A stretch of 64,000 nt of DNA from Chloroflexota bacterium (lineage in GTDB: Bacteria > Chloroflexota > Anaerolineae > JAAYEA01): assembly GCA_036841525.1 (NCBI GenBank), contig DAITVZ010000002.1:5693-69692 (forward strand). Direction: 5' to 3'. The notes under the pieces are model-generated. The model was not told where the DNA came from. It was given only the letters and a program-made list of their open reading frames with translations, and did no database searches. Below, piece by piece: positions 23,915-54,602 of this stretch. A program made the translations under genes and the position numbers. Every line of letters begins with the position of its first letter. Position 1 is the stretch's first letter.

Positions 23915-25006
23915 TCAGGTGTACCGGCCAAACTCGTGATAGGCCGTCAGCAGCGCCGCGATGTTCTCCGGCGGCGTGTCCGCCTGGATATTGTGCGCTG
24001 TGCCCAGGATATAGCCGCCTCCCGGCGCCAGCGCGGCGATGCGTTCCTGCACCTCCCATGCGACCTGCTCCGGCGTGCCAAAAGGCAGCGTCCGCTGAAT
24101 CGAGATTCCGCCATGGAATCCCAGGCGCTGACCATACTCGGCCTTGAGCGCCCTGTGATCCATGCCGGCCGCCTCGGGTTGCAGCGACTGGAGCACGTCC
24201 AGCCCCCGCTCGATCAGCAACGGCACCAGCGCTCGCACCGAGCCGCAGGTGTGATGCATGACGCTGACCCCGTGGCGCCTGGCAATGGCGCAATAGTCGG
24301 CAAAGCCCCTCCCCAGGAACTCCGCCCACATTCTGGGCGAGACCAGCGGGCCCGCTTGCGAGCCAAAGTCGTCGCCCGTGAGCAAGATATCCAACTGGCC
24401 GCGCGCGGCAGTAAGGATCCGCTCCTCATACTCGCCGTAGAACTGGCTGATCCGGCCCAAAACCGCGTGGGCCATTTCGGGCCGCTCCACCATATCCATC
24501 AGGATGCGCTCGACCCCGCGCAGGTACATGGCGGGCTTGAGCTGAGCGACCCGATTGAGCCGGTCGCCCATAAACACCGCGGCGCGCCCGGCTCGGTGAA
24601 CCGCTTCGCACTGCGCCGCGATCGCGCTATAGTCGAACCAGTCCGCCGACGGCCAACCGGCGTAAGCCTCCACTTCGGCGACGCTATCGGCGGCGGCCAG
24701 CGGGGACTCGGCCACCTCCATGTACTGCTCCAGGCCATGCGCCACCTGCACGCTCACTGGCCGGCGCAGCACCCCCCAGATGTCCCGGTCGCAGCCATCG
24801 GCTCGCCGCTCCAACGCCGGACCGATGTAGCCAGGCCCTTCGATGTACCGCAGGTCCACATCATGCTCATCCAGGAATTCGGCATAGGTCCGGCCGGTAG
24901 CGCGCTCGATGCTACGGATGCACCCGCTGGACGCCCAAAAGTCGATGGGTACCCGGTCAGGCTCCCTGTGTTGTAGCGCCAGCTTGACCCTCGTGCGAGA
25001 ATCCAT
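23915..25006 (-). CDS. URO-D superfamily protein (MtaA/CmuA-like)
   Basis: N-terminal RVKLALQHREPDRVPIDFW, LVSPRMWAEF and HTCGSVRALVPLLIERGLDVLQSLQ blocks. The start is placed at MDSRT..., 54 nt inside the tool ORF. Confidence 0.8.
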   Translation of the reverse strand: MDSRTRVKLALQHREPDRVPIDFWASSGCIRSIERATGRTYAEFLDEHDVDLRYIEGPGYIGPALERRADGCDRDIWGVLRRPVSVQVAHGLEQYMEVAESPLAAADSVAEVEAYAGWPSADWFDYSAIAAQCEAVHRAGRAAVFMGDRLNRVAQLKPAMYLRGVERILMDMVERPEMAHAVLGRISQFYGEYEERILTAARGQLDILLTGDDFGSQAGPLVSPRMWAEFLGRGFADYCAIARRHGVSVMHHTCGSVRALVPLLIERGLDVLQSLQPEAAGMDHRALKAEYGQRLGFHGGISIQRTLPFGTPEQVAWEVQERIAALAPGGGYILGTAHNIQADTPPENIAALLTAYHEFGRYT

Positions 25007-25060
25007 GACGACCGCTCGGCCTCCCCTCTTTTCCGCGCCCGCGAGCGCGCCCCCAACCAA

Positions 25061-26350
25061 CTACTCGCGCCTGCGGCCTTGCCCGATCTCGGCGCCCTGC
25101 TCGATCAGCGTCCGCTGCAATGCCTTGATGTCCACCTGCTTGGGCTCCACTCCCGCCCTGGCGCAGAGCGCCGCTGAGGTACCTGCCGCTTGCCCCAGAC
25201 ACATACACGGCCCGATGGAGCGCCACGACTCGAAAGCTGGCTGATCGCTAGACATGCACCGCCCCGCCACCAACATCCCGTCCACGTCCTTGGGCAACAT
25301 GCAGCGATAGGGGATCTCGTAGCCCTCGTGTTCGAGGAAGCGCCGATACCCATAGTAGTGAATGATCGGCTTGGAGGCCATGGCCATGCTGTCCTCGAAG
25401 CGCGCCCCGCCCAACACGTCTTCCGCGGTGATCTTGTACAGCCCCTCGATGAAGCGGGTCTGGCGGATCCCCAGCATCGGCCCCGTCTCGACGATCTCGG
25501 CATCGGCTAACTGCGGGTCGTGCGCCTTGCGCGCTTTCAGGTCTTCATAGACGGCCAGCCTGGTGCGTATCTCTGCATCCGTCAGCTCCCGCGCATCGAC
25601 GGCGTTGATCGGCCCCGCCTTGGGCCCCCAGAGGCATGGCGCCGAATAGACCCCCGCACCGTGCACGTGGTGCTCGTTCGGGAGCCCCGCCACCTTGTAG
25701 ATCAGGATATCGATCAGCCGCGGCGCCTCGTCATGGACCGTCTGCCAGTACGCTGCTCCAGCCCTAATCGCCACGTCTCCGTCGCCGCTGGCGTCGATGA
25801 TTACCTTCGCGTAGGCCGCCTGCCGCCCGGACTTGTTCTCCCAGATCACGCCAACCACGCGCCGCCCCTCGCGGATGACGTCGCAAAAGTACGTGTGGAA
25901 CAGGACCTCAGCGCCCGCCTCGGTGACCATCTTGAGCATGACATACTTGAGTTTCTCCGTGTCCACGCCATAGCTGAAGGACAGCTGGCCCGGCGCCGTC
26001 GGATAAACCTTCTGCTTGTTATGCGTGGTGATGCCCAGCCCGCCCAGCTCTTTCAGGCGCAGGATCACCTCTTCGCCGATGCCTCGGGTCGTCTGCAGGC
26101 CGTCCGGCTCGCGCTCATTCCGGAACCCGTTGATCTGCGGCATGATGGCAGCCGTGGCCGTGCCGCCAAAGAAGGGAAAGCGCTCGATGATCAGCGTCTT
26201 GGCCCCGTTTCGCGCGGCGGCCACCGCCGCCGCGAATCCCGCCGCCCCGCCTCCGACGATGATGACATCGTATTCGCCATAGACCGGCAGCTCTTTGGCG
26301 GGCTCCACATAGGTGCGTCCAGTGCTCACTCGTCCTCCTGACTCGATCAT
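25061..26350 (-). CDS. FAD-dependent oxidoreductase (PF12831-like)
   Basis: N-terminal dinucleotide-binding motif DVIIVGGGAAGFAAAVAAARNG and a GD motif (IDASGDGDVA). About 430 aa. Confidence 0.8.
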   Translation of the reverse strand: MIESGGRVSTGRTYVEPAKELPVYGEYDVIIVGGGAAGFAAAVAAARNGAKTLIIERFPFFGGTATAAIMPQINGFRNEREPDGLQTTRGIGEEVILRLKELGGLGITTHNKQKVYPTAPGQLSFSYGVDTEKLKYVMLKMVTEAGAEVLFHTYFCDVIREGRRVVGVIWENKSGRQAAYAKVIIDASGDGDVAIRAGAAYWQTVHDEAPRLIDILIYKVAGLPNEHHVHGAGVYSAPCLWGPKAGPINAVDARELTDAEIRTRLAVYEDLKARKAHDPQLADAEIVETGPMLGIRQTRFIEGLYKITAEDVLGGARFEDSMAMASKPIIHYYGYRRFLEHEGYEIPYRCMLPKDVDGMLVAGRCMSSDQPAFESWRSIGPCMCLGQAAGTSAALCARAGVEPKQVDIKALQRTLIEQGAEIGQGRRRE

Positions 26351-28944: not shown

Positions 28945-30234
28945 TCATCCTTCCCCTGCAATCGTCGGCGCGCCAGCTTGGCGGCTCGTGTCGACGCTTG
29001 CGGCATCCTTGAGCGCCATATAGGCATATAGGGTGGTCCACTTGTTCGGCTCTCCCACCTTCCCCGACTTGACCCAGACAGCCGAATGCTGCTCCTCCAG
29101 CGGATAGCGACCCTCTGCGTCCCGCTTGCTGGCCAGGCGCTCCCAGGCGTCCGCCAAGGCAGGGTGCTTGCCGTATCCCATGCGGCTAAGTGCATGCAGC
29201 GGCTCCAGCAAGTTGCCCCAGAAGAGAAAAGGGAACTGCAACCGCACCAACTCGTCTCGAATCAACTGGTCAGGTGGGCTCATGCGGTACAGAACTCGGC
29301 GCCTCAGAAAGTACTCCACGACCTGCTGGCATCGCCGCGTACCCCACAACTCGGGCAGAGCGGCGAAACAGCTCAGCGCCTTGGTTGACCCTCGGATGCA
29401 GCTCTTGGTGCGAGGGCTGAACGAGTCACGGTCGCAGAGATACCCCCCGTCCCAGCGCGTGTCGCTCAGCAGAACCTGAACGCGCTCCTCGATCCGGGGG
29501 TCGTCTCGGTAGCCGAGCATCACAAAGCTGCGCAGGTTATAGGCGTAGAGACAGGACTGGTGATTGCGATAGTCGGGCGGATGTTCCCAGCGAGGACGGT
29601 CCTGGGCCACGGGCGGCAGCGTCAGGTAACGGTCCACCGCGCGCGCAATGCGCTCGTCGCTCCGATCCATGCCCAGCTCCGCCAGATAGCCAAGCGTCAA
29701 GTGCGTCGAATTGGGCCAGCGATAGTCTACGCCCGCGCCCTTGCCCTGGTAGAGCCAGTACCCATCGGGGTGCATCTTGGCGAACAACTTGCGCACCGGT
29801 TCGCTCGCAGGGATCTGCGCCTTGGCGGCCAATACCTCGGGATCGTTTTGCAGCCGATCGAGCAGCTCGCGCAACGCTCGGTAGCGCACGGAAGGCTCGC
29901 TCTCCTCCAGCAACCAGGCCAGGACCGTATCCGGGATCATCACATCCAGCCTCCTCGCCTGGCCGCCGTGCAATTGCCTCAGGCGCTCCAGCGCCCGCCC
30001 ATAGCTGGCGTTCTGCTCGCTCCATCCCACCAGCCTGACACAGGGGAACTCGGCGCACTCGTGGCAGTGGCCTAACCCCCTTTGGTCCACGCAGCATTGC
30101 AGGATCCAGCAGTCTGCGGACCAGTGCTTTGCCCGGTCGCCATGGCAGCCCTGGCACACCATGTTGCGCGCCACGGCCTCGGCTACCCCCTCGCCCTCTT
30201 TCAACCAACCCATCTGTTGGAACGACGCAATCAC
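28945..30234 (-). CDS. DUF3795-like Cys-rich zinc-ribbon domain fused to an alpha/alpha-toroid (prenyltransferase/squalene-oxidase-repeat-like) domain
   Basis: N-terminus CQGCHGDRAKHW...CWILQCCVDQRGLGHCHECAEFPC matches the DUF3795 cysteine pattern. The remainder is paralogous to the 32222-33247 product (shared blocks WLLxxxxPxVRY, GYWxxxG, KWxT near the C-terminus). Confidence 0.6.
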   Translation of the reverse strand: MIASFQQMGWLKEGEGVAEAVARNMVCQGCHGDRAKHWSADCWILQCCVDQRGLGHCHECAEFPCVRLVGWSEQNASYGRALERLRQLHGGQARRLDVMIPDTVLAWLLEESEPSVRYRALRELLDRLQNDPEVLAAKAQIPASEPVRKLFAKMHPDGYWLYQGKGAGVDYRWPNSTHLTLGYLAELGMDRSDERIARAVDRYLTLPPVAQDRPRWEHPPDYRNHQSCLYAYNLRSFVMLGYRDDPRIEERVQVLLSDTRWDGGYLCDRDSFSPRTKSCIRGSTKALSCFAALPELWGTRRCQQVVEYFLRRRVLYRMSPPDQLIRDELVRLQFPFLFWGNLLEPLHALSRMGYGKHPALADAWERLASKRDAEGRYPLEEQHSAVWVKSGKVGEPNKWTTLYAYMALKDAASVDTSRQAGAPTIAGEG

Positions 30235-30266: not shown

Positions 30267-31436
30267 CTACCTATAGAAGCTCAACGCTCTCTCGATGTGC
30301 TCAGCCGCCTCGGCGTCCTTGTCTCGCGCCCGCACGATCAGCGCCGCGATCTTGCGCCGGACCTCCGGCCTGGCCAGGTTACGTACCCGGTCCTCGCTCC
30401 GCCCGATCCCGCCCACGGCATCCCAGATCTGCCACATCAGGTCGTGCTCGCCAGCATAGCACGCCGCCGCCCGCAGCAGGTCCTCCGCCATCCCATAGGG
30501 CAGGTGCTCGATCGCCTCCATCAGAAACTGCCCGCCGTACCAGCGGCCCTCGGCCACCACCCCTACCGCCGAGTCGTGGACATTGAACCGCTGCCACAGC
30601 GCCGCCATGTCCTCGGTCGCAAACTCGCTGTCGCGCTCCAGGTGCTCTGCCCAGGCCGTGTAGGCTGCCAAGCCATTATGCCGGACGGCATGGTCGTACC
30701 GGGTCACCAGCGGCGTACGCGCCACCTGGAGGGCCCACTGCAGTGCGTCGCGGTATAGCTCCTTCAGCGGCGGACACGGCTGCTTCTCGCCAACAATGAT
30801 CGGCGACTGGGTGTCCTTGAACCAGTCGCGCTTGCGGAACTCGCCGGTCGGCTCGTACTCGAGGCCGGCGTTGAAGGGAGGCATCTGCTGGAAGCAGTTC
30901 CAGCCGATGAGCACGTCGCCGTCCTCGTCATACCCGGTGACCACGCAGCACTCGGGCGGGCCGATGACGCCAAAAGCTAACGCCGGCACGCCCCGGCGGA
31001 TGCTCTCCCCGATCCGTTGTCGCCAGGCCGCCTCGTTATCCGCCCCCTCGACGGGCTGCAGGACCTCGAAGCCGTAGCCGACGCTCCGAAATGCTCGCGC
31101 AAAGGGAGCCATCGGATCGTCGGACATGTACATGATCTCCACGTTGTCCTCGTGCCAGCCAGGCCGCCACGAGAGCTGAAAGGCGCAGCCCGTCACGCCC
31201 ATCAGGTACGAGTAGGTGCAGTGTACCCGGCAGGGCTCCCGCCCCTTGGCGTGCTTGCAGCCCCAGTCGGGCTCGCCCAGGTACTCGAGAACCGCCCGCA
31301 TGCTTGACGGGAAACAGACGTCCTCAGGGCACCGCGCCTTGTCCCGCTGTTGGGTCTGGTCATAGAAGCCCACAAAGGGCACGCCCTCCAGCACGACCCG
31401 CGAGGGTGTCAGCTTGGCCAGATTCTCCCCAGTCAT
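30267..31436 (-). CDS. Cys-rich hypothetical protein, possible papain-like (C39/BtrH_N-like) fold with a helical C-terminal domain
   Basis: Q-x6-C...DVCFPSSMRAVLEYLG resembles the Gln-oxyanion/Cys-nucleophile region of C39/BtrH_N-type papain-like domains, and further Cys residues are present (a likely partner-histidine region was not identified). Start at MTGENLAKL, 216 nt inside the tool ORF, with a GGAAAGGGGGA ribosome-binding site. Confidence 0.5.
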   Translation of the reverse strand: MTGENLAKLTPSRVVLEGVPFVGFYDQTQQRDKARCPEDVCFPSSMRAVLEYLGEPDWGCKHAKGREPCRVHCTYSYLMGVTGCAFQLSWRPGWHEDNVEIMYMSDDPMAPFARAFRSVGYGFEVLQPVEGADNEAAWRQRIGESIRRGVPALAFGVIGPPECCVVTGYDEDGDVLIGWNCFQQMPPFNAGLEYEPTGEFRKRDWFKDTQSPIIVGEKQPCPPLKELYRDALQWALQVARTPLVTRYDHAVRHNGLAAYTAWAEHLERDSEFATEDMAALWQRFNVHDSAVGVVAEGRWYGGQFLMEAIEHLPYGMAEDLLRAAACYAGEHDLMWQIWDAVGGIGRSEDRVRNLARPEVRRKIAALIVRARDKDAEAAEHIERALSFYR

Positions 31437-31481
31437 AGTGTCCCCCTTTCCTGTGGCGCTGGTTAACCGACCCACAGACAC

Positions 31482-31510
31482 ATCATAGCACACATGTTCG
31501 CATCTGTCAA
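31482..31510 (-). promoter_or_regulatory. sigma70-like promoter on the minus strand for the Cys-rich gene (TTGACA-17 nt-TATGAT)
   Basis: The reverse complement of 31482-31510 reads TTGACA gatgcgaacatgtgtgc TATGAT. It lies about 45 nt upstream of the ATG at 31436. Confidence 0.55.
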
Positions 31511-31581
31511 GGTGGCTTTTGTGGGCCGGGGAGCGGGCCGATCCCAGGCCGCTGCGCGGCTGCGAGGCAGGGGGCTCCAAC

Positions 31582-41849: not shown

Positions 41850-43019
41850 ATGCCGACCAGCCTCAAGACCCTATCCACCCATAGCCCGGCCCTGGATACG
41901 TTGCTGGAAAAGCACCGCGCCTTCTGGCGGCGTGACGCCAAGGGCTTTCTGCGCGCCGTGAGCGTGTTTGCGCCCTCGGAGCCCTCCCGGCTGCCCCAGC
42001 GCGACGGCCGCGCCATAACCCAGGCCGCGCGCTTGACCCCCGACATGTTCGATGTGGGCTTGCTTATCGACGACGTGCTGGCCTGGGATCCCTCCCAGAA
42101 CGACCCGCTGCTCGCCGCCAGGCAGCAGGTGCTAGCCTTCCCTGGTGTGGGCGACCTGTTGCCGCTCAGCCGCGCCTTTTTCAAGATCCCCTGGCTGGAG
42201 GCGATGCTTGGCTGCCCCATCACCATGACCGAAGGGCAGATTTGGGTCGGCCACTATGAGGGCACAGCCGAGGACGCCATCCGTCGCGGCGTCCATTTCG
42301 AGGGCAATCCGTGGTTTCAGCTTTATGTCGAGTTTTTGCATCAGCTTCAGGCTCGCCTGGAGCCCCGCTACCTAGCCTCGGCCAACACGCTGCTCCGCGG
42401 CACCTGCGACCTGGTCGCCGCCATCCTGGGGGTGAAGGAAGCCTGCGTCGGCTGGATCGAGCAGCCGCGACTCATGGCCCGCCTCTTGCGCGTCTGCACC
42501 GATGCCAACCTGGCTGTGATCGAGGCCGGGCGCAAGGCGCTGCGCCCCTTCCAGGGCGGCTACATGAGCGCTTTTGGCGTCTGGGCGCCCGAATACGTGG
42601 TTCGCACCCAGGCTGACCACTCCACCCTGCTCTCGCCGCGCATGTACCGTGAGCAGATCCTCCCCTTCGACCGCGAGGTGATCGCCGCCGCGCCGCACTG
42701 CATCTTTCACATCCACAACAACGGCTACCACATCGCCCCAGACCTGGTGCAGGTCCCCGAACTGGACGCCATCGAGGTGGTGGTGGACCCCTATCCCACC
42801 GGTGCGCGCAAGGCGTACGAGATCGTGATGATGCAGATGATCCTGCAACACAAGGCGTTGCTGATCGACGGAAACTTTCCCAGCTATGAGGAAGCGGAGT
42901 GGGTGCTGGCCCAGTTGGATAGGCGCGGCCTGTACTATAACGTGCAGCTCTCCGCCGAGACGCTGTCTGCTCTACCAGAGGGCGCGCCGCATAGCGAGAT
43001 GTGGCTACTTGAGGAGTGA
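41850..43019 (+). CDS. URO-D superfamily protein (MtaA/CmuA-like)
   Basis: LLSPRMYREQILPF and HIHNNGYHIAPDLVQVPELDAIEVVVD blocks shared with the other URO-D-like paralogs. ATG at 41850 with AGGAGG ribosome-binding site; the tool ORF has a spurious upstream extension. Confidence 0.7.
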   Translation: MPTSLKTLSTHSPALDTLLEKHRAFWRRDAKGFLRAVSVFAPSEPSRLPQRDGRAITQAARLTPDMFDVGLLIDDVLAWDPSQNDPLLAARQQVLAFPGVGDLLPLSRAFFKIPWLEAMLGCPITMTEGQIWVGHYEGTAEDAIRRGVHFEGNPWFQLYVEFLHQLQARLEPRYLASANTLLRGTCDLVAAILGVKEACVGWIEQPRLMARLLRVCTDANLAVIEAGRKALRPFQGGYMSAFGVWAPEYVVRTQADHSTLLSPRMYREQILPFDREVIAAAPHCIFHIHNNGYHIAPDLVQVPELDAIEVVVDPYPTGARKAYEIVMMQMILQHKALLIDGNFPSYEEAEWVLAQLDRRGLYYNVQLSAETLSALPEGAPHSEMWLLEE

Positions 43020-43040
43020 TCGCGAAACGAGGCGGCGCGG

Positions 43041-44042
43041 CTAGGCGTGCGCCCGCGCCTCCTCGATGAGCGCCAGCATGTTAGCAATGGGCACGTCGCT
43101 CTGGATCGCTTGCGCCGGCGAGGTGATGTACCCGCCGCCACGGCCCATGCGAGAGACCACCTCGCGCACCTCTGCACGCACCTGCGCCGGCGTGCCAAAG
43201 GGCAGGGTCTGCTGCGTGCTGATCCCGCCCCAAAAGGTCAGCTTGCCGCCGTACCGCTCCTTGAGCCGATAGATGTCCATGCACTCGGGCTGCACGGGGT
43301 TCAGCACGTCCACGCCGATCTCGATCAAGTCGGGCAGGATCGCCTCGATGTTGCCGCAGGAATGCAGCCAGACGTCCTTGCCCTCAGCATGCACCAGATC
43401 GTATTCGCGCTGCTCCCCCGGGGCGATCAGGTCGCGCCACGCGTTGGGTGACATGAGCAGGCCATGTTGCGAGCCCCAGTCGCTGCCCAGCAGGATGCCA
43501 TCGATGCCCTCGTAACCCAGCAGGTTCTCCAGCATGACCATGTTCTTGTCGATGATCTTGTTCAGCATCCGCCGCGCAAAGTCCTTGTGCCCGCCAATGT
43601 CGCCCAGGAAATTCTCGATCCCGCGCGCGCTGTTGGCCTTCTCAAAGTGGCTGCCATAGATCATCACCAGCACGTAGCAACTGGTCTCTTCTTTCAGGCG
43701 AATCAGCTCTTCCTGATAGGCCGTATAGCTGCCGTGGCCACGCGTCTTAGGCAAGACCACCGGGTCATCAAAGTCCCGGTAACTGGCGGGGATATCGTGC
43801 CAGCCCCACCAAGGCGCCGAGATCGCGTGCACATGGTTGCCCATCGCCACGGACAAGTCGGCCCCGGGAAAGTGCGGGGCGACGATCTCTTGGGCGTCGC
43901 GCGTCAGGTTGATAAAGTAGGGCACATGGCCGATCTCCTGGTGCGCGATCGCCGCCTGGACCACCTGCCTGCGTGTCAACACGATGTAGCTGCCTCCCGT
44001 TGTCTGGTCGCCCTGCCGATCAGCGCTTGCACAGCTCTTCAT
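43041..44042 (-). CDS. URO-D superfamily protein (MtaA/CmuA-like)
   Basis: VLTRRQVVQAAIAHQEIGHVPYF N-terminus, LLMSPNAWRDLIAP and HSCGNIEAILPDLIEIGVDVLNPVQ blocks. The first ATG overlaps the upstream gene by 23 nt, so the true start may lie downstream. Confidence 0.75.
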   Translation of the reverse strand: MKSCASADRQGDQTTGGSYIVLTRRQVVQAAIAHQEIGHVPYFINLTRDAQEIVAPHFPGADLSVAMGNHVHAISAPWWGWHDIPASYRDFDDPVVLPKTRGHGSYTAYQEELIRLKEETSCYVLVMIYGSHFEKANSARGIENFLGDIGGHKDFARRMLNKIIDKNMVMLENLLGYEGIDGILLGSDWGSQHGLLMSPNAWRDLIAPGEQREYDLVHAEGKDVWLHSCGNIEAILPDLIEIGVDVLNPVQPECMDIYRLKERYGGKLTFWGGISTQQTLPFGTPAQVRAEVREVVSRMGRGGGYITSPAQAIQSDVPIANMLALIEEARAHA

Positions 44043-45081
44043 AGACCTGCTGGTAATACAGCACCGCGTCCACCGGCGTGTTCGGGGGGATGTGGTTCCC
44101 CACGGCCAGGAAATAGCCGGGGCAGCGCTTCCCGATCGACATACACCGCTCTACCTCGGCGCGGATGGCGGCCTTGTCGCCGCCTAGCAGGATGCGGGTA
44201 TCGGCATTGCCGATGAAAAAGTGCGTGCGTCCATATCTCTCGGCGATATACCCCATGTCGGTGGTCGGCTCCATCACGAACCCGCTGATCCCGCAGGCGG
44301 CGATATCGTCGATGAACATCGTATAGTTGCCATCCGAGGTGAAGGCGATCTTTTTGCCGGACTCGACCAGCGGCGCAAAGAGCTTCTTATAGTTGGGAAA
44401 GATGTACTCCCGATACCACTTGGGCGAGATGAAGGGCCCCGCGCTCCAGACGATGTCGTCGTGCACCATGACCATGGGCAGGTCCGCCGCGCCCAGGGCG
44501 TCATAGTACTGCTGTATCCACCGCGCATAGCGGTTCGCCACCTCGCCAAAGGCGACGGGATCGGTCCCCGCCGCCAGCAGCAACAGGTCCCACCCAAAGA
44601 GGCCGATCATCCCCGAGATCATGGTGATATAGACGCCGGTCATGTTGACCTGATTGGGGTTGTTCCGCGCATTGCGGGCATAGGCCTCCTCGAAGCGCGC
44701 CTTGAGCTCGCCCAAATCCTTCTGCCCCAGCGACTCCCAGGGATCGAAGCGCAGCACGTCCTCGGGCGTCTGAAAGTGGGGGCTGGCCCTGGGTATCCGC
44801 CAGTCCACCCCACCCGCCGCATAGACCGCATGGCCCATATCCGTATAGTACTCGCCCAGTTCCCCGTGGCTGATCAGCGTGGACCAGGCAAAGTCGAAAT
44901 CCCAGGCCCGCTCGAGCGCCCGCCCGGCCCGCTGCTTTTTCACCTGCGAGCTCTCCGGGCCTGCTTTGATCCCCGTTACGGCCTCGATGACCCCCCAGTG
45001 CGTGGTCACCGAGTACTCGGTGTGCGGCACCCTCGCCGGCATTTCCAGGTTGATCGCGGCCCATCCATCTTGATAGGACAT
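44020..45081 (-). CDS. URO-D-like superfamily protein
   Basis: N-terminus WAAINLEMPARVPHTEY matches the URO-D-like N-terminal pattern. FISPKWYREYIFP is similar to the LSPRMYRE block of the paralogs. 353 aa. Confidence 0.6.
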   Translation of the reverse strand: MSYQDGWAAINLEMPARVPHTEYSVTTHWGVIEAVTGIKAGPESSQVKKQRAGRALERAWDFDFAWSTLISHGELGEYYTDMGHAVYAAGGVDWRIPRASPHFQTPEDVLRFDPWESLGQKDLGELKARFEEAYARNARNNPNQVNMTGVYITMISGMIGLFGWDLLLLAAGTDPVAFGEVANRYARWIQQYYDALGAADLPMVMVHDDIVWSAGPFISPKWYREYIFPNYKKLFAPLVESGKKIAFTSDGNYTMFIDDIAACGISGFVMEPTTDMGYIAERYGRTHFFIGNADTRILLGGDKAAIRAEVERCMSIGKRCPGYFLAVGNHIPPNTPVDAVLYYQQVYEELCKR

Positions 45082-45107
45082 GTGAGTGAGTACCTCCTGT
45101 GGCTAGT

Positions 45108-46367
45108 TCACTGCGGACCAGGGGTGCGCAGCACCTCTTCCATGGCGATCTCGGCCCATTCCCAGAGGCGTTTCGGCTGGTAGCGCACCGTGGAGATGTC
45201 CTTCATGATCACCTCGACGTTGCACCCGCGTGACTTGTCCAGCGCCTCGCGCAGCATCTTGCGCGCCAGGCCGGGACGCCAATCGTCCTCGGCCAGCAAC
45301 GCCGGCGTGGGCTTGTAGGAGAACACATAATCGCGCCCGATCTCGCGCGCGCCGCGGGCCACGTCCACCCAGGGGCTCATGGAGACCTTGCGCAGGTTGG
45401 GGATGCGCCTAAGGATGCCCATCTTGATGTCCAGCGGCTCGCAGCAGCCATAGTAGGTCAGGCCCCAGCGCTCCAGCCAGCGCATCTCGTGCCGCAGGGC
45501 GAACTCCCAGTGCTGCTCCGGCGACACTCCCGAGAAGATCTGGGCCGTGGCGCAGCCCCAGAGGTTGTGCGGCAGGGGGTGGGCGGCGTCATAGGGCGAG
45601 CCGGGCAGCTCGCGGGTATAGCCGTAGGCTCCGGAACCGATGCGCGTATTGTCGTCGTTGCGCGTGAGCAAGTTGAGCGACACCCACTGCTCCAGCTCGG
45701 CCATGTAGGCGTCCACCAGCCGCGCCATGATGGCGTTGACCATCTCGGGACGCAGCACCAGGTCCATCATCGCCTCGGTCACGCCCCACCAGCGGATCAG
45801 CTCATCCCAGGGGGCGAACCAGCGCCCCTTGATTCCCACCTTGCGCACCGGCATAATGTCGCCAAAGAGCTCGACCATGGCCTGGTAGCGCTCCTCGGTC
45901 GCGGCCACCTCGTGGGTCACCACCGGCGTCTTGATCTTGACGATATCCTCCGGCTCGACGATTTGGCGGTGAAAGTGTCTGGAGACGACGCTGCTGGTCG
46001 GGTCCGTGCGGGCGATATCCACATCTTCGGTGAGGCCCAGCCCGGTGCTGCGAATCTGCAGGGGACACGAAAGGTAGCCGTCCACCACCATGTCGCACGG
46101 AAAGTGACGCCATTGGTAGAGCAGTCGCCGCAGGCCCTGCTCCAGCTCGCGCGCCCAGGGGTCGGCGCAGCGCAAGGTCAGCTCGTCATCGGCGCTCATC
46201 TCGTTCCAGCAGACCTCGTTGATCCAGACCAGCGGGCGGACCGGCTCCAGGTCGTTGAGCCGGCGCCATAGCTCCGCCTTCTCCCGGTGCACTGGCAGCC
46301 CCGCGATTCCGGCCTGCTGCTCGGCCAGGCGACATAGGATGTCTCGGTCCTCTTGTGGGATCCTCAT
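45108..46367 (-). CDS. distant URO-D-like / methyltransferase-fold hypothetical protein
   Basis: 419 aa. The C-terminal YYGCCEPLDIKMGILRRIPNLRKVSMS resembles the HxCG...L..L...G.D block of the MtaA/URO-D fold. Clustered with three URO-D-like genes. Assignment is tentative. Confidence 0.45.
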   Translation of the reverse strand: MRIPQEDRDILCRLAEQQAGIAGLPVHREKAELWRRLNDLEPVRPLVWINEVCWNEMSADDELTLRCADPWARELEQGLRRLLYQWRHFPCDMVVDGYLSCPLQIRSTGLGLTEDVDIARTDPTSSVVSRHFHRQIVEPEDIVKIKTPVVTHEVAATEERYQAMVELFGDIMPVRKVGIKGRWFAPWDELIRWWGVTEAMMDLVLRPEMVNAIMARLVDAYMAELEQWVSLNLLTRNDDNTRIGSGAYGYTRELPGSPYDAAHPLPHNLWGCATAQIFSGVSPEQHWEFALRHEMRWLERWGLTYYGCCEPLDIKMGILRRIPNLRKVSMSPWVDVARGAREIGRDYVFSYKPTPALLAEDDWRPGLARKMLREALDKSRGCNVEVIMKDISTVRYQPKRLWEWAEIAMEEVLRTPGPQ

Positions 46368-46423: not shown

Positions 46424-46457
46424 AAAAACGGGCGCCGCGATGATCGCAGCGCCCGTT
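46424..46457 (-). terminator. rho-independent terminator on the minus strand after the permease gene (about 15-bp stem AACGGGCGCCGCGAU / AUCGCAGCGCCCGUU, then U5)
   Basis: Long inverted repeat with one mismatch at 46427-46457. The minus transcript continues UUUUUGCUUC (complement of 46421-46426). Begins 19 nt after the stop. Confidence 0.65.
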
Positions 46458-46475
46458 CAGCTCGCGGCCTGGCCG

Positions 46476-48752
46476 CTAGCGTCCGTTGCCCTCAGCCTCC
46501 TCGGCGACCACATAATCCTCTTCGTCTTCGATGGCCTTGATCTGGCGGCGCAGCCAAGAGACGGCCACCGGCTCGTAGCGCCGGCACAGCAGCACCGAGC
46601 AGGGAGCCTGCTCCGCCACCCAGTCATCCACGGAGCCAAAGAGTCGCGTGCTCAAGGACCACTCCTCGGAGGCGCCCAGTACAACCAGGTCATACGGCTC
46701 GCTGCGCGCCTCGGCCAGAATGCCCTCGGGCAACGACGCGCTCTCGCGCACACGCAGCGACACCCATGGCGGAACTTGTCCCAGAACCTCCTCGATCACC
46801 TCCGTCAGCAAGGCGGTCTTGTCCTCTAGCTCTTCCTGCAGTTCATCCTGGTCTGCCCGCGCGGACGGGCGCACAAGCCGCAGCGCGGTCACCTGGGCTC
46901 CCTTGGCCAGCGCGATCTCATAGGCGAGGCGCACCGCCAGGCGCGCATGCGTCGAGCCACCGATGGGGACGAGGATCTGCCGGACATCGTTCAGGCCGCG
47001 ATCCAGCAGGACCGCCACGTTCGTGGGCGCCCTCTGCAGCACGGCTTTCACCGGGTTTTCCGCCAAGGCTTCCCCCTTGAGGGGGCCTGGCCACCCCGCG
47101 AGCAGCAGCTTGACATTGTTGCGATTGCGCAGCTCCGCTAGTATTCCCTCGGCGATGGTGCGGGCGCTGCGCAGCTTGGTGTAGACGGCCAGGTTGTTCT
47201 GCAGGGCATAGGTGGATACCTCGGCCAACAGGGCCTTCTGCTGGTCCTTGGCTTGTCGAACGACCTGCGGCCCTCGCCTCCTCGATGATGGCGCCTTGTA
47301 CACCGAAAGGACGCACGCATAGGTATCCTCGCTGGCCTCGGCAAAAATCGCCGCCAGGCGCACCAGCGCCTGAGCCGTCTGGGGATGAGCCGCGGCGATG
47401 AGCAGCCGGTCCCTGGCCGGCTCGGCGCTCTTGAGCACCGAGGCAGTCCAGGTCGAGACCTTTGGGCCCAGGATGCGCAGCAACGTAAGGAGGACGAGCA
47501 ACACGGCCCCGAAAAGGATCGCGCGCCAGTCCGCAAAGGCGATGATCAGCACGCAGGCGACCCCTGCCGCGTACACGGTCCATGGGTAGAAGGGCACCTT
47601 GAACGGCCGCTTCAGGTCGGGGTGCAACTTCCTCAGGCGGATGAGCGACAGGCTGCCCCAGAACAGCACGAACAGATACCCAGAGCTCGAGATATAGCTC
47701 AGCAGGTCGACCAGGCCGATGAGAGCGACCAGTGCGCTGACTGCGCCGACGACGATTACGGCCACGTAGGGCGTGCGAAACCGGCTGAGCCTGGAGAACG
47801 CGCGCGGCCAGACCCGGTCGCGCCCCAGCGTGAACGCCTCGCGAGTGGCGCTGAGCATGGCCGAGTTGATCGTCGTGATAGTCGCGATGATGCCCAGCAC
47901 GGCCATGATCGCCACACCTATTCCTGGGGCAAAACGTGCGGCAGCGTCGGTCAGCGCCGTCTCCGAGCCAGCCAGCTCTTGCCAGGGAACGGTCCCCTGG
48001 GTCACCAGGGAGACGGTCATATAGATCACGGTTACCAGCGTCAAGCTCGTCAGGATGCCCACGGGGATTGCCCGGTCGGGGTTCTTGATCTCTTCGGCGT
48101 CATCGACGATCACCTCGAACCCCACATAGGCGTTGTAGAGGAGCGCCACGGTGGCGAGCATGGCGGCAAGATTGCGCCAGAGGCCGTCAAAGACGAAGAA
48201 CCTGCCCTCGGGGATGAAGACGTCCCAGGCAAAGCCATGGGGGCTCGCGAAGCCAGCGATGATATACCAGCCAAAGCCCACCAGCAGCAAGCCGCCCAGG
48301 ATGATCTGCGCGTTTCCGACCTTGGTCACGCCGAGGATGTTCAACACGGTGAAAACCAGGATGATCGCGATGGCGGTGGGGACAATGGGCAATCCTGGAA
48401 GAAAGACCCGCAAGGAGTAGGCAAAGCCAACTCCGGAGAGCGCCGCGTAAAAGGTGCTGGAGAGGCAGTCCATGGACCCCGTGAGGTAGTGGAGCAAGCC
48501 GGTGCCATAGGCCTCCCGCACGTAGCTCATGGCCCCGCCCGCTTCTGGGAACGCGGTCCCCAGCTCGCAATAGTTGATGGCCACGGCGTAGCTGAGCACG
48601 CCGCCAATAAGCAGCGCCAGGATGGCGGCCGGCCCGGCCATGCCCGCGGCATGGCCCGTGAGCACAAAGATCTCCGCAGCGATGGTGCCCGCCGCGCCCA
48701 ACATAATCACTTGAGGCAGGCCCAACTGCCTCCTCAACCTGCGGCCACTCAT
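46476..48752 (-). CDS. APC-family amino acid permease fused to two C-terminal universal stress protein (UspA) domains
   Basis: About 12 TM spans with APC-like blocks (PEAGGAMSYVREAYG). The C-terminal roughly 290 aa carry two Usp-like alpha/beta units (VLLDRGLNDVRQILVPIGGSTHA; DLVVLGASEEW). Start at the second Met (MSGRRL), 87 nt inside the tool ORF. Confidence 0.8.
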   Translation of the reverse strand: MSGRRLRRQLGLPQVIMLGAAGTIAAEIFVLTGHAAGMAGPAAILALLIGGVLSYAVAINYCELGTAFPEAGGAMSYVREAYGTGLLHYLTGSMDCLSSTFYAALSGVGFAYSLRVFLPGLPIVPTAIAIILVFTVLNILGVTKVGNAQIILGGLLLVGFGWYIIAGFASPHGFAWDVFIPEGRFFVFDGLWRNLAAMLATVALLYNAYVGFEVIVDDAEEIKNPDRAIPVGILTSLTLVTVIYMTVSLVTQGTVPWQELAGSETALTDAAARFAPGIGVAIMAVLGIIATITTINSAMLSATREAFTLGRDRVWPRAFSRLSRFRTPYVAVIVVGAVSALVALIGLVDLLSYISSSGYLFVLFWGSLSLIRLRKLHPDLKRPFKVPFYPWTVYAAGVACVLIIAFADWRAILFGAVLLVLLTLLRILGPKVSTWTASVLKSAEPARDRLLIAAAHPQTAQALVRLAAIFAEASEDTYACVLSVYKAPSSRRRGPQVVRQAKDQQKALLAEVSTYALQNNLAVYTKLRSARTIAEGILAELRNRNNVKLLLAGWPGPLKGEALAENPVKAVLQRAPTNVAVLLDRGLNDVRQILVPIGGSTHARLAVRLAYEIALAKGAQVTALRLVRPSARADQDELQEELEDKTALLTEVIEEVLGQVPPWVSLRVRESASLPEGILAEARSEPYDLVVLGASEEWSLSTRLFGSVDDWVAEQAPCSVLLCRRYEPVAVSWLRRQIKAIEDEEDYVVAEEAEGNGR

Positions 48753-48840
48753 CCAGAGTTCCTCCACTCTCTTGCGCGTGCCGTCCGCAAAGCCGCCAGG
48801 CGGCCCGCCTGCACTTCGCCGCCCCGACCAGCCGGACACG

Positions 48841-49089: not shown

Positions 49090-50373
49090 TCACTGCAAGA
49101 ACTTGAGCTTCAGGGCCTCGATCTCGCCGTCGCCGATGGGCACGAGTTTGCCCAGGGGCAGGATGTCCAGCACCGACTTGGCGCTGAACTCGGCCACCTC
49201 CAGCCGGTCAAAGGCTTGCAGAACGTCGCCCCCGACGGACAGCACGCAGTCGTTCTGCACAAACATCACCGGCGTCTCGCCGGAGAGGGCCGCGGCGATC
49301 CTGCCCGGATCGCGATATTGCGCCCCATAGGAGATCAAGGGGATATCGCGCAGCAGAATATAGCTCTCCGGTATAGTCCTCGTATCGAAGGGCTGCCCGG
49401 CGATGGCAAAGGCCATCACATGGGGTGGCTGGGCGATGAGGATCGCCCCGATCTCCGGGTGCGCCTCATAGATCGCCTGATGCAAGCGCGCCGAGCGGCT
49501 GGGGTGCTTTCCACGCTCCCTTCTGCCCTCCCGGATCAGCACCAGATCCTCGATCTCCATGGAGCGCCGATCTTGGCCGGTCGGCGTGATGATAAAGCTA
49601 TCCGCATCCACCCGGGCAGAGGCCACTCCCTCGGTGCTGATCATCAGATACCGATCGCAGGCCCGGTGCACGATCTCGACGATCCGGCCCCGAACCTCCC
49701 GCTCCGGACTCGTGTGCTCTGCCGGGTCAAACTCGGGCAGAAGGCTCTCCCGCCCATCGAAATAGGCGATCTGCTCCTCGCTCAGGCGATGGACAGGGCC
49801 CAGACCCCGCGCCTGCAGCAACGTGCGGGCACAGAAATCCAGTGTCTCCAGCCGCTGAAAGGCAGCCCGGAGGTCCTCGCCGCCCGCGGCGATGCCGTGG
49901 TTCTCCAACAAGACCGTCTCATAGCCCTGCGCAAAGGTCTCCGCGATCACCTCTCCGAGCGCCTCGCTGCCGGGCAACGCGTAAGGCGCATAGCCCACCG
50001 CCCCGCATATCCGCCGGGCCTGCGGGATGATGTCGGTCACCGGCGTCTCTCGCATGATGCTGAACGACACCAGCGCCGGGGGGTGCGCGTGCACGATGGC
50101 GCGGAGGTCGGGCCGCCGCGCATAGATGGCGCGATGGAAGGGGTACTCGGAGGAGGGGCGGTGCGGCCCGACGATGCGGCCATCCGCCTGCACGCACATG
50201 ATGTCCTTGGGCGTGAGCGCGCCTTTGTCCACCCCCGCCGGCGTGATCCAGATGTCGTCGTTGGTGTCCCGAATGGACAGGTTCCCCCCGGAGAGGGTGG
50301 TCATGTTGTTACGATAGATGCGCTCCATGATGGCGACCAATTGGTCGCGCGGGTGCAGCAGGTGGAATCTCAT
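49090..50373 (-). CDS. tandem-fused class II aldolase/adducin-domain protein (two aldolase-II-like units; fuculose-/ribulose-phosphate aldolase-like)
   Basis: First unit carries the SGGNLSIRD N-terminal motif and the metal-binding histidine block HAHPPAL. Second unit (residues about 215-427) repeats the fold (ISTEGVASAR...IITPTG..., HPEIGAILIAQPPHV). Confidence 0.75.
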   Translation of the reverse strand: MRFHLLHPRDQLVAIMERIYRNNMTTLSGGNLSIRDTNDDIWITPAGVDKGALTPKDIMCVQADGRIVGPHRPSSEYPFHRAIYARRPDLRAIVHAHPPALVSFSIMRETPVTDIIPQARRICGAVGYAPYALPGSEALGEVIAETFAQGYETVLLENHGIAAGGEDLRAAFQRLETLDFCARTLLQARGLGPVHRLSEEQIAYFDGRESLLPEFDPAEHTSPEREVRGRIVEIVHRACDRYLMISTEGVASARVDADSFIITPTGQDRRSMEIEDLVLIREGRRERGKHPSRSARLHQAIYEAHPEIGAILIAQPPHVMAFAIAGQPFDTRTIPESYILLRDIPLISYGAQYRDPGRIAAALSGETPVMFVQNDCVLSVGGDVLQAFDRLEVAEFSAKSVLDILPLGKLVPIGDGEIEALKLKFLQ

Positions 50374-52258: not shown

Positions 52259-54430
52259 CTAACCCAGAGCGCCCTGCAGCGCCATCAGGGCCCGGATATC
52301 TCCCGCGATCTTGATCTTGCCGGTCATGTAGGCCACCATCGGGTTCAGCTCGCCCCGGAGGAGCTTCATGGCGTCCTCCGCCTGCATGGTGACCGTCGCC
52401 GTCGCCTCTCCAGCCCCGGGGCCGGCCTCTGCGCGGCAAGCGCCGCTCTCAAAGACGAAGCGATACAGCCGCCCCTCGCCCAGGTCGAACTTGAGCACGG
52501 CGTTGAGGCCGGGGTTCTTGCCGTTCAGCTTGGCCGCCAACGCCAGAAAGGCCTCGGGCACCACGGGTTGAGGCGGAGCAGGCGGCTCCGGCGCGCGCTG
52601 CGGCGCCACGCCTTGCTGAGCAGCCGTCACGCCAGTGGGCTGAGCCCAGCGCTCGCGCAAAAAGTGCGCGGCCATCTTGGGGCGGCGGTCCCGCGTGAAA
52701 ACGCCCTTTCGGTTCATCCCTCCGGCGCGCATCGGGCTCTGCCCGACCTTAAAGTCGGCGAAATTCCAGACGTGCAGCCCCGCCACATAGGGCCGCGCCG
52801 CCGCCACATCCAGATAGCGTCGCAGCATCTCCACCTGGTACTCCTCGCTCCAGACCTCCGGCGGGTCAGCATGCACGCCAGCGAGCGAGTCGGCGCCGAA
52901 TTCGCTGATCACGATGGGCTTGCCCAACTGCTGGTGCAGCCCATCCAGCTCTTGCGCCAGCATCCGGGCCCCCTCATCGAGCTGCCCGGCCTGGACGTAC
53001 CAGCCCCAGTAGCGGTTGATGAACACCACATCCGCCAGCGCCATCCACTCCACCGGGCACCCCATCACCGCCGCCGATGTGGCTGGCCGGGTGGGATCCA
53101 GATCGCGCACCACGCTGTAAAGCTCGCGGAAGAAGGCGAGGGCCGAGGCGTCCGCCGCGTTGGGCTCGTTCCGCCCGCCGTCGCCGCCCATCATCCGCCG
53201 CATCGCGTTGGGAGGCATCGGCTCGTTGGCCACGCTCCACATGATCACGCTGGGATGGTTCTTGTCGCGCGCCACCAGCTCGCGCAGTTGCCGCTTGCAC
53301 AGCCCCAAGCGCGTCTGGATATTCTCCTCGCCGTCCTCGAAGAACAGCCCCACCGCCGGGATCTCGTCCACCACCAGGGTGCCCTCGCGATCGGCGATGT
53401 CCATGGCCTCATCCGAGTAGGGATAATGGGAGGTCCGGTACGAGTTGGCGCCGATCCACTTGAAGAGCGCGGCGTCCTTGATGATCAGGGGCATGTTCAG
53501 ACCGCGGCCGTGCACCGGGAAATCCTCGTGCTTGCCAAAGCCCTTCAGCATAATCGGCTTGCCATTGAGCAGCAGTCGATCGCCTTGCACGCTGATGGTC
53601 CGGATGCCCACGGGCAGCCGATAGCGATCGATGACCTCCCCCGCGTCAAGCGTCACCTCCAGATCGTAGAGGAAGGGGTTGTCCGGGGACCAGAGGCGCG
53701 CCTTGGGCACGCGGATCGCCGCCTCCGCGACGCTCCCTTGGAAGGACAGAGGCGCGTCGGCCTCGAAACCCTGCCCCCGCACCCTCACACGTCCGGCGCC
53801 GCCCTCGCCACGTTGGATGACCTCGACGTCCACGATGCCATCCTCGCCGACCAGCACCGTGTTCACGGTGACGTCCTCGATGCGCCTAGGGGGGACCGCG
53901 AAAAGGATCACGGGGCGATGCAAGCCCCCGTAGGGGAAAAAGTCGAAATTGGTGCTGGGGAACCCGCTCATAAAGCCACCGAAACCGCCGCGGGCCACGT
54001 TGCCTGGCGGCACCCGCGTCGGCTTGAGCTCGTTCTCCACACCGATGGCGATGAGGTTTTCTGCACCCCACCTGACCTGCGGGGTGATCTCCAGGTCGAA
54101 GGGCAAGTGCCCGCCCTCGTGCGAGCCCACTATCTCCCCGTTGATCCACACCTTGGCAGCATAGTTGGCGGAGCCAACGCGCACGAACAGCTCCTGGCCA
54201 TTCCATCCACTGGGCACATAGAACGCGCGCGCATACCAGGCCAACCCCATATAGTCGCGCGTGTCCTGGAACTGCTCGTTCCAACTCCCCGGCACCGCGA
54301 TCTGGCGCGGAGCGCTCAGCCCGTGCTGCCAGCCCTCCGCCTCGCCGACCTGCCCGGGATCGAGCTGGAACCCCCAGAAACCCGACAGGTCCAGCAAGTT
54401 GCGAATATCGTTCTGCTGCGGGTAGAGCAT
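52259..54430 (-). CDS. GH2 beta-glucuronidase-like enzyme with C-terminal SCP2 sterol-carrier domain
   Basis: The N-terminus MLYPQQNDIRNLLDLSGFWGFQLD...IAVPGSWNEQF parallels the E. coli GusA start (MLRPVETPTREIKKLDGLWAFSLD...IAVPGSFNDQF). The GH2 catalytic region includes WSVANE. The last roughly 110 aa form an SCP2 fold (YMTGKIKIAGDIRALMAL). Start at MLYPQQ with an AAGGAGGT ribosome-binding site, 141 nt inside the tool ORF. Confidence 0.8.
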   Translation of the reverse strand: MLYPQQNDIRNLLDLSGFWGFQLDPGQVGEAEGWQHGLSAPRQIAVPGSWNEQFQDTRDYMGLAWYARAFYVPSGWNGQELFVRVGSANYAAKVWINGEIVGSHEGGHLPFDLEITPQVRWGAENLIAIGVENELKPTRVPPGNVARGGFGGFMSGFPSTNFDFFPYGGLHRPVILFAVPPRRIEDVTVNTVLVGEDGIVDVEVIQRGEGGAGRVRVRGQGFEADAPLSFQGSVAEAAIRVPKARLWSPDNPFLYDLEVTLDAGEVIDRYRLPVGIRTISVQGDRLLLNGKPIMLKGFGKHEDFPVHGRGLNMPLIIKDAALFKWIGANSYRTSHYPYSDEAMDIADREGTLVVDEIPAVGLFFEDGEENIQTRLGLCKRQLRELVARDKNHPSVIMWSVANEPMPPNAMRRMMGGDGGRNEPNAADASALAFFRELYSVVRDLDPTRPATSAAVMGCPVEWMALADVVFINRYWGWYVQAGQLDEGARMLAQELDGLHQQLGKPIVISEFGADSLAGVHADPPEVWSEEYQVEMLRRYLDVAAARPYVAGLHVWNFADFKVGQSPMRAGGMNRKGVFTRDRRPKMAAHFLRERWAQPTGVTAAQQGVAPQRAPEPPAPPQPVVPEAFLALAAKLNGKNPGLNAVLKFDLGEGRLYRFVFESGACRAEAGPGAGEATATVTMQAEDAMKLLRGELNPMVAYMTGKIKIAGDIRALMALQGALG

Positions 54431-54602
54431 CGGTACCTCCTTGTTCCCATGCCGGATGGCCCCTATTATCCGCAGCCAGGCCGATCTGTCAAGTCCTGCC
54501 GGGGCGGCAACTTGACGATCGGGCGATTGCGTGCTTAACTGGCCTGGCAGCCGCGCGGACGCCTTCGCCACGGCAGCTTCGGCATCAGGATGGGAGGTCC
54601 AG

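Follow-up and report, generated by a model that had tools for sequence, protein, structure and literature searches.

The activities described for the superfamily that unites uroporphyrinogen decarboxylase (UroD), MtaA and MetE comprise uroporphyrinogen decarboxylation, zinc-thiolate alkyl transfer (MetE, MtaA and epoxyalkane:coenzyme M transferase) and corrinoid-dependent O-, S- and halogen-demethylation (PMC10418091). The superfamily includes OdmB and VdmB, the methyltransferase I (MT I) components of corrinoid-dependent O-demethylases (PMC10418091). The known O-demethylase systems are encoded in four-component operons (MT I, corrinoid protein, methyltransferase II (MT II) and activator) and act on aryl methyl ethers in anaerobes. 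Side-by-side MtaA-superfamily paralogues occur in non-methanogens in the type 1 mlp clusters (Kountz and Balskus 2023), whose definition requires a corrinoid protein alongside several proteins more than 25% identical to a coenzyme M methyltransferase, and which are tied to methyl-sulfur/methyl-selenide metabolism. Here, four consecutive genes for proteins of this fold, termed A to D, are described from a 64,000-nt window (the whole stretch of DNA that was analysed) of a Chloroflexota bacterium (GCA_036841525.1, contig DAITVZ010000002.1, positions 5,693-69,692, forward strand). Relatives of these genes recur beside fucosidase and sugar-importer genes in distant lineages, and a link of these families to sugar, especially fucoside, utilisation is considered likely from gene context.

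Gene A (41850-43019, plus strand) encodes a divergent URO-D-fold protein of 389 residues from a rare subfamily, B (43041-44042, minus strand) an HxCG-type URO-D protein of 333 residues, C (44020-45081, minus strand) a URO-D protein of 353 residues from a highly conserved 352-residue subfamily, and D (45108-46367, minus strand) a cytoplasmic URO-D-fold protein of 419 residues from a large family that has no curated model. The four consecutive open reading frames (ORFs), with these coordinates and strands, had been put forward in an earlier note on this DNA and were confirmed by ORF listing and codon-position GC; third-position GC is 0.82-0.89 in A to D, high as in real genes of the window. Genes D, C and B read as one minus-strand operon headed by D, because D and C are only 26 nt apart, C and B overlap by 23 nt (or lie 38 nt apart if B starts at an alternative GTG at 43982, giving 313 residues) and a terminator precedes D. 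The latter is an intrinsic-terminator-like hairpin (46426-46458, minus strand) with a 15-bp stem containing 10 G-C pairs followed by a T run. Gene A converges on the operon, with 21 nt separating the stops of A and B. The D-C-B/A arrangement was found in all six metagenome occurrences, as far as each contig reaches. The source is an Anaerolineae-like Chloroflexota metagenome-assembled genome (MAG), recurrent in anaerobic-digester metagenomes, which agrees with the Chloroflexota context invoked in the earlier note. Two further paralogs are likewise real genes: E (13960-15204, plus strand) encodes an HxCG-type (HCCG...H) URO-D protein of 414 residues and F (23915-25060, minus strand, with an ATG at 25006) an HxCG-type (HTCG...H) protein of 381 residues.

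Against the Pfam URO-D model (PF01208, gathering threshold of 23.9 bits), B, C, E and F score 72, 80.1, 80.6 and 72.9 bits, respectively. Gene A reaches 18.4 bits, under the cut-off, and some A-family relatives pass it, while D found no match in Pfam (PF01208 included), NCBIfam or PDB sequences. PDB sequence searches with D, A and an A-family profile returned nothing useful; the best PDB matches of C and B were UroD (PDB code 4wsh; E=2e-6) and MtaA (PDB code 4ay7; E=6e-6), respectively. Profile-profile comparison (hhalign) with an alignment of HxCG-type URO-D proteins detected the C family at E=9e-22, the D family at E=3e-5 and the A family weakly (E=5e-4). Predicted models display a (beta/alpha)8 barrel nearer to UroD and MtaA structures than to other TIM barrels, the best structural matches of C and D being UroD entries. 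Thus, as far as predicted structures can show it, all four proteins possess the URO-D/MtaA/MetE fold; the superfamily assignment of the earlier note holds for all four by fold, although sequence models miss A and D.

The description of the copies as paralogs holds at the superfamily level but not as close kinship. Proteins B, E and F are mutually 32-40% identical across the C-terminal half, B and C share 26% identity, and A and D are barely detected by BLAST against the other copies. Among the sequence blocks said to be common to all, LLSPRMYRE is exact in A and E only, the others carrying looser SP-x-x-[WY] variants, and the HxCG block is present in B (HSCG), E (HCCG) and F (HTCG) but not in A, C or D. 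Close relatives are found elsewhere. Protein D has 5591 matches, of which the best 120 are 67-79% identical, apart from one near-identical copy at 99%, all unnamed and none with a Pfam domain; its family forms 2155 clusters at 50% identity and is present in at least 589 species genomes. Protein C has 3088 matches, and the best 120 are 64-84% identical, nearly all of 352 residues, and span Anaerolineae, Armatimonadota, KSB1, Planctomycetota and Latescibacterota. The A family is rare, with 136 matches at 50-68% identity. A recent tandem duplication was rejected because pairwise identities do not exceed 26% and each gene has orthologues 60-80% identical to it in other phyla. Judged by these comparisons, the four genes represent separate old subfamilies, non-orthologous to one another, that have been brought together.

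The family models for MtaA, MtbA and CmuA (TIGR01463, NF004889, NF040654 and NF041608) give scores of 25-59 bits with these proteins, compared with cut-offs of 235-600; the best values are 58.7 for B, 53.6 for E, 48.3 for F and 39.4 for C, and A and D have no match to these models. For the hemE model (TIGR01464, cut-off of 302.95 bits), C and E score 21.7 and 24.7 bits, and A, B, D and F have no match. The RQAGR motif, which we take to be the N-terminal substrate-binding motif that defines UroD, was found in none of the six proteins by a regular-expression search. For all four, identity as a haem-type UroD and as a canonical MtaA was rejected on the strength of model scores, sequence motifs and genomic surroundings. 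In contrast to MtaA, MtbA and MtsA, the present genes adjoin no corrinoid protein and no coenzyme M metabolism and lie in a glycan-utilisation context; unlike UroD/HemE (PDB codes 4exq, 1j93, 2eja and 4wsh), they lie in no tetrapyrrole context. MetE and the short "core-MetE" (Meth_synt_2) also differ, as no Meth_synt_1 or Meth_synt_2 match was obtained, other residues are conserved and the methionine-synthesis link of MetE was not seen for these proteins. The type 1 mlp clusters resemble this locus in their adjacent paralogues, but here only B, E and F match MtaA, weakly (E=6e-6 to 5e-3), and both the corrinoid protein and the methyl-sulfur/methyl-selenide context are absent.

Differences extend to the residues that occupy the positions of the MtaA zinc triad, His-x-Cys...Cys. 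Full conservation of these ligands had been proposed as a check on the MtaA-like assignment, and the complete triad is present in none of the six copies. Proteins E and F retain H-x-C...H, the third-position His standing at the second zinc Cys of MtaA in F and aligning with a UroD His in E. In B (H-x-C...Q), aligned with 4ay7, the His and first Cys match zinc ligands, whereas Gln stands at the position of the second Cys. Within the HxCG type, no variation occurs at the His, at the Cys or at the Gly after it; the third position is almost always His, B being the exception. Protein C presents T-x-D...N/H, A presents H-x-H (H287 and H289, both invariant in the A family) and D presents G-C-C...E. 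Members of the wide D family (31-59% identity) share a conserved core of Y306-G307-C308-C309-E310, E385, E76 and R326, and D therefore retains a distinct conserved site at the usual active-site position of the superfamily.

The genes around D relatives were compared in 80 species-genome loci from at least eight phyla, taking five neighbours on each side and clustering them. The lineages comprise Chloroflexota, Planctomycetota, Verrucomicrobiota including Akkermansiaceae, Lentisphaerota, Kiritimatiellia, Spirochaetota, Bacteroidales, Acidobacteriota, Poribacteria, Hydrogenedentota and Nitrospirota. Neighbours were called by a simple longest-ORF method, which performs poorly in some high-GC loci, and were labelled by Pfam scans of cluster representatives and by hidden Markov models (HMMs) built here. 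GH29 alpha-L-fucosidases, counted with an HMM grown from a Pfam-verified seed and without a matched random-gene control, are represented by 38 genes in 25 of the 80 loci. Twelve of them directly adjoin D, all on its strand, and their share of genes falls from 7.7-8% at one to three genes from D to about 3% at four to five. Sugar importers are also frequent: CUT2-type sugar ATP-binding cassette (ABC) permeases in 21/80 loci and their fused double ATPases in 17/80, FucP-like MFS transporters in 9/80 (seven at position +1) and SSF transporters in 7/80. The mutarotase rhaM is found in five loci. Further URO-D-fold genes lie near D in 19 loci, directly adjoining it in 11. In locus L034, the operon reads GH29, URO-D(HGCG), D, URO-D(HSCG), rhaM, ABC, and similar operons are present in L024, L029 and L063, the carriers being Planctomycetota and Lentisphaerota; several Planctomycetota operons consist of URO-D-fold genes, mutarotase, transporter and GH29 only. 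Other direct neighbours of D are diverse and include sugar transporters, GFO_IDH, GH38, GH78, GH3 and a glycyl-radical enzyme. One relative of 595 residues (P0247) carries an N-terminal NPCBM/NEW2 carbohydrate-binding domain fused to the D-family domain (residues 178-593), a single fusion that hints at a carbohydrate substrate.

In an Anaerolineae MAG (L022:7499-9904), D directly follows a PFL-like glycyl-radical enzyme, and on a 250-kb contig (L178:5131-9975) it follows genes for an epimerase, a ManC-like nucleotidyltransferase and a type I phosphomannose isomerase. In Chloroflexota, D genes are thus also present beside nucleotide-sugar genes and glycyl-radical genes, the latter perhaps of the diol-dehydratase type.

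Seventy-seven usable metagenome loci, many of them short, were available for C. A GH29 gene directly adjoins C in eight of them and a D-family gene in five (L106, L121, L128, L137 and L155); three of these five pairs keep the D-then-C order of the window, the gene order in L137 being URO-D, D, C. Genes of four further kinds were each found in six C loci: GHL6, other URO-D, aldo-keto reductase and MR_MLE (fuconate-dehydratase-like). A C-like gene is the second gene after D in two genomes of Poribacteria, and on a 250-kb contig a CUT1 ABC transporter is followed by a C homologue and another URO-D gene, 8 kb from D. Since D-C and D-plus-HxCG adjacency is seen in distant lineages, these linkages are conserved ones. 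The four-gene block as a whole was found in this species only: among D relatives 71-79% identical (L015-L022), C, B and A are not nearby. The loci of six A relatives display two themes. Amidohydro_2, HpcH_HpaI aldolase, FAH, GFO_IDH, sulfatase and other URO-D genes make up the first, and a RACo-type activator, DUF2284 (twice) and an MttB gene (L177) the second; by family assignment these correspond to deoxy-sugar-acid catabolism and to accessory genes of corrinoid systems.

A corrinoid motif scan of 2.1 Mb, covering 160 loci of D and C relatives, identified true corrinoid proteins in five, each no more than two genes from the D or C anchor; Pfam confirmed three of the three scanned. The link is thus rare (about 3% of loci) yet positionally tight. 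In a Nitrospirales MAG (L059:654-3880), D, an A-like gene and a corrinoid protein (PF02310 and PF02607) stand in a row, the only locus found with these three consecutive. The A-like protein of this locus has 373 residues, matches the A profile at E=1e-13 and displays FYHLDGPG in place of FHIHNNG. In L087 and L091, D is followed by DUF1638 and a corrinoid protein on the opposite strand, L087 also containing a MetE-like gene, and in L123 and L171 the corrinoid protein is next to C or two genes away. Two ORFs beside the corrinoid genes of L123 and L171 were dropped, as they look like spurious antisense ORFs. In L010, D lies near a MetE-like gene and cobalamin-synthesis genes.

Tentatively, and with a good deal of reserve, the D-C-B operon and A are interpreted as an accessory module of fucose/deoxyhexose-glycan utilisation that would demethylate methylated deoxyhexoses. 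Typically, one to three URO-D-fold proteins are encoded together with a fucosidase and an importer for monosaccharides, in some operons also with a mutarotase, but without enzymes of downstream catabolism. This set fits an accessory step in which a modified sugar is made ordinary. The common sugar modification for which no oxygen-independent removal enzyme is known is the methyl ether; the only sugar demethylase that we know to have been described is a P450 acting on 6-O-methyl-galactose. For both reasons O-demethylation is favoured as the module's chemistry, although this part of the proposal is itself rather doubtful. In such a scheme fucosidases would free the sugar, the importer would take it into the cell and the cytoplasmic URO-D-fold proteins would act on it there, with their active sites at the C-terminal ends of the barrel strands, the superfamily's usual place. 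Catalysis would involve a predicted His-x-Cys...His(Gln) metal site in the B/E/F type, the conserved Cys-Cys-Glu...Glu site of D, Thr-x-Asp in C and His-x-His in A. O-methyl groups would be stripped from methylated deoxyhexoses such as O-methyl-fucose, either a thiol or a corrinoid protein with its gene elsewhere would accept them, and the plain fucose would then join the ordinary catabolic route.

Methyl transfer is consistent with a superfamily that holds MtaA, MetE, OdmB and VdmB (PMC10418091), with the invariant H-x-C and nearly invariant third-position His of the HxCG type, with the tight placement of corrinoid proteins at D and C, and with the RACo activator, DUF2284, DUF1638, MetE-like and MttB genes near A or D relatives. 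The earlier suggestion of methyl-transfer or decarboxylation-like chemistry thus stays live in its methyl-transfer part, but not in the form of a classical MtaA or a haem-type UroD. As with OdmB and VdmB, a catabolic ether substrate would lose its methyl group, and a few D, C and A relatives have a corrinoid protein no more than two genes away or a RACo-type activator nearby. In contrast with the known O-demethylase systems, partners are missing in the window and at about 97% of homologue loci, sugars make up the context and many carriers are aerobic.

Several observations weigh against demethylation. The 64-kb window yielded neither a corrinoid protein nor an activator nor a methyltransferase of the pterin type, and corrinoid proteins are present in just 5/160 homologue loci, whereas known corrinoid methyltransferase systems are normally clustered with their corrinoid protein. 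The His-Cys-Cys triad of MtaA is in no copy, and A, C and D lack H-x-C altogether. GH29 genes are found in only about one third of D loci and one tenth of C loci, the other neighbours being very diverse; the four-gene block is limited to this species; and many carriers belong to aerobic lineages (Pirellulales, Poribacteria and Acidobacteriota). Finally, the searched literature held no paper on these families and no demonstration of an O-methyl-sugar substrate, a methyl acceptor or an activity. A broader proposal, that the D and C families together with HxCG-type URO-D proteins constitute a widespread, unrecognised system removing O-methyl or alkyl groups from fucose and other deoxyhexoses, is unlikely as things stand. 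In such a system, transfer might run through a corrinoid carrier whose gene is elsewhere or, without cobalamin and in the manner of MetE, from one URO-D-fold subunit to a different one, and its deoxyhexoses could come from algal, plant, mucin or microbial glycans.

Much of the same context would also suit a sugar chemistry that involves no methyl group, namely an isomerase, epimerase, lactonase or dehydratase-type step, metal-dependent or cofactor-free, in a non-canonical fucose/deoxyhexose route, to which the URO-D barrel would have been recruited. The GH29, CUT2, rhaM and FucP-like MFS genes serve this explanation equally, as do the aldo-keto reductase and MR_MLE genes near C and the Amidohydro_2, HpcH_HpaI, FAH and GFO_IDH genes near A, which belong to non-phosphorylative deoxy-sugar-acid routes. 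TIM-barrel metal enzymes often serve as sugar isomerases, and the Planctomycetota operons restricted to URO-D-fold genes, mutarotase, transporter and GH29, the aerobes among the carriers and the loci without a corrinoid partner all agree with it. However, we know of no member of the superfamily with chemistry of this kind. Fucose isomerase accompanies D in two loci, so that D does not replace FucI there; the usual lack of downstream catabolic genes in D operons is a better fit for an accessory step; and the five corrinoid proteins close to an anchor would be left unexplained. A non-methyl step is regarded as the main, though doubtful, alternative.

It is improbable that the four genes are chance neighbours, that is, functionally unrelated members of an expanded superfamily with no joint function. 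The restriction of the full block to one species, the close D relatives without adjoining C, B and A, the opposite orientation of A and the many URO-D-fold copies per carrier (six in this window) would all be expected of chance. Against it stand the D-C adjacency in 5/77 distant metagenome loci and at +2 in Poribacteria, the HxCG-type URO-D genes near D in 19/80 loci from several phyla, mostly on the same strand, and the short D-C-B gaps and overlaps, which fit co-transcription.

Still less probable is a role as classical MtaA-like methyltransferase 2 (MT2) or methyltransferase 1 (MT1) partners of the MttB-family gene at 33277-34749 (plus strand; PF06253, 162 bits), in the corrinoid-dependent removal of methyl groups from quaternary amines or other small molecules that carry them. 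This gene contains no in-frame stop, scores far under the cut-off of the pyrrolysine-type model TIGR02369 and lies about 7 kb from the cluster; an MttB gene also occurs near the A relative of L177, MtaA is the best PDB match of B, and the host is an anaerobic-digester organism. However, the MtaA/MtbA/CmuA scores remain far below their cut-offs, no copy carries more than part of the zinc triad, and MttB is on the other strand from the operon, with GH95, FAD-oxidoreductase, BNR and SIMPL genes in between. No corrinoid protein was found in the window for the MttB-family or URO-D genes, either by Pfam in the main ORFs or by a B12-binding motif scan that covered all frames, including those of the few small ORFs outside the Pfam scan, and MttB is not recurrent near D or C (157 loci). 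The known bacterial MttB-family systems (MtgB, MtcB and MtyB), moreover, pass the methyl group to a pterin-type MT2 and not to a URO-D-type protein. A partnership with MttB comes close to the suggestion of the earlier note. HemE isoenzymes for haem/tetrapyrrole synthesis, to which the Pfam family name and the UroD entries matching C and D might point, are effectively refuted by hemE scores of 22-25 bits or none against a cut-off of 303, the missing RQAGR, glycan-related neighbourhoods and the lack of any tetrapyrrole-synthesis gene among the scanned window ORFs.

Whatever the chemistry, the C and D families are clear and cheap targets for biochemical characterisation. Together they comprise thousands of unusually conserved sequences in at least ten phyla, with carriers that include Planctomycetota, Verrucomicrobiota/Akkermansiaceae, Bacteroidales, Spirochaetota and Chloroflexota. 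In oceans, guts and digesters, glycans that contain fucose, such as fucoidans, mucins, pectins and microbial slime, represent a large store of carbon, and the repeated adjacency to fucosidases and importers suggests a missing step in their breakdown. If that step were the removal of methyl ethers, it would explain the use of methylated sugars without oxygen-dependent P450 enzymes, provide the first oxygen-independent sugar O-demethylase and widen the known chemistry of the UroD/MtaA/MetE superfamily. The URO-D/MtaA fold itself is already known. Neither these subfamilies nor URO-D-like proteins of fucose or glycan loci were covered in the literature searched, and the subfamilies, their altered active-site residues, their mutual linkage and their association with fucosidases and importers thus appear to be new within that literature.

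The telling context of the cluster is provided by glycoside hydrolases, above all fucosidases, and sugar importers. The earlier note had overlooked this context, as well as the size and strong conservation of the families of C and D. A GH95 alpha-L-fucosidase-family gene (34772-37069, plus strand; PF22124 with 604 bits, PF14498 and PF21307) lies about 5 kb from the cluster, and glycan-related genes dominate the window (GH95, two GH2, BNR_2, sulfatase and MFS transporters), which also contains two PF12831 flavin adenine dinucleotide (FAD) oxidoreductases, an MR_MLE enzyme, a double class II aldolase and xylose-isomerase-like barrels. Paralog E directly follows a GH2 beta-galactosidase and two MFS transporter genes, while F is directly downstream of a PF12831 FAD oxidoreductase (25061-26350, minus strand). 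The note had instead connected the cluster with a SIMPL lipoprotein and a riboswitch-controlled permease. The SIMPL link was rejected because SIMPL is not a recurrent neighbour in other lineages. The riboswitch is a cyclic di-AMP (c-di-AMP; ydaO) element (RF00379; 48889-49031, minus strand; 80.6 bits), separated by a terminator-like hairpin (48870-48846, minus strand) from the permease gene, whose product of 787 residues is an APC-family permease with a C-terminal Usp domain (Pfam; 46476-48839, minus strand). The strong terminator that precedes D follows the permease stop (46476) and closes the unit ahead of the D start (46367); riboswitch and permease therefore form a separate transcription unit, probably for osmolyte or potassium uptake and unconnected to the URO-D cluster, and a functional link was rejected.

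Several other genes of the window are unusual. Just upstream of the MttB-family gene, 32120-33247 (plus strand) encodes a protein of 375 residues that has no Pfam match and is a 26%-identical paralogue of the product of 28945-30234 (minus strand), a 429-residue protein with an N-terminal Cys-rich DUF3795. Between these two genes, 30267-31652 (minus strand) is a 461-residue ORF with gene-like codon bias and no match in Pfam or NCBIfam. At 19723-21492 (plus strand), two same-frame ORFs match successive parts of UGSC (PF24696) and are split by a TGA at 20140-20142 (...VAVGH-TGA-STCAP...). They probably represent a single selenocysteine-containing protein of about 550-590 residues; a simple fold of the 60 nt following the TGA gave no convincing hairpin resembling a selenocysteine insertion sequence (SECIS; z-score of +1.6). 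The gene at 37627-40047 (minus strand), which adjoins a BNR_2 sialidase-like gene, encodes a PF12831 FAD-dependent oxidoreductase of 806 residues with a long C-terminal extension; this family is likewise uncharacterised in glycan loci. Two unusual fusions are encoded on the minus strand, a 427-residue protein with two class II aldolase/adducin domains (49090-50373) and a GH2 glycosidase whose C-terminal part is an SCP2 sterol-carrier domain (52259-54571).

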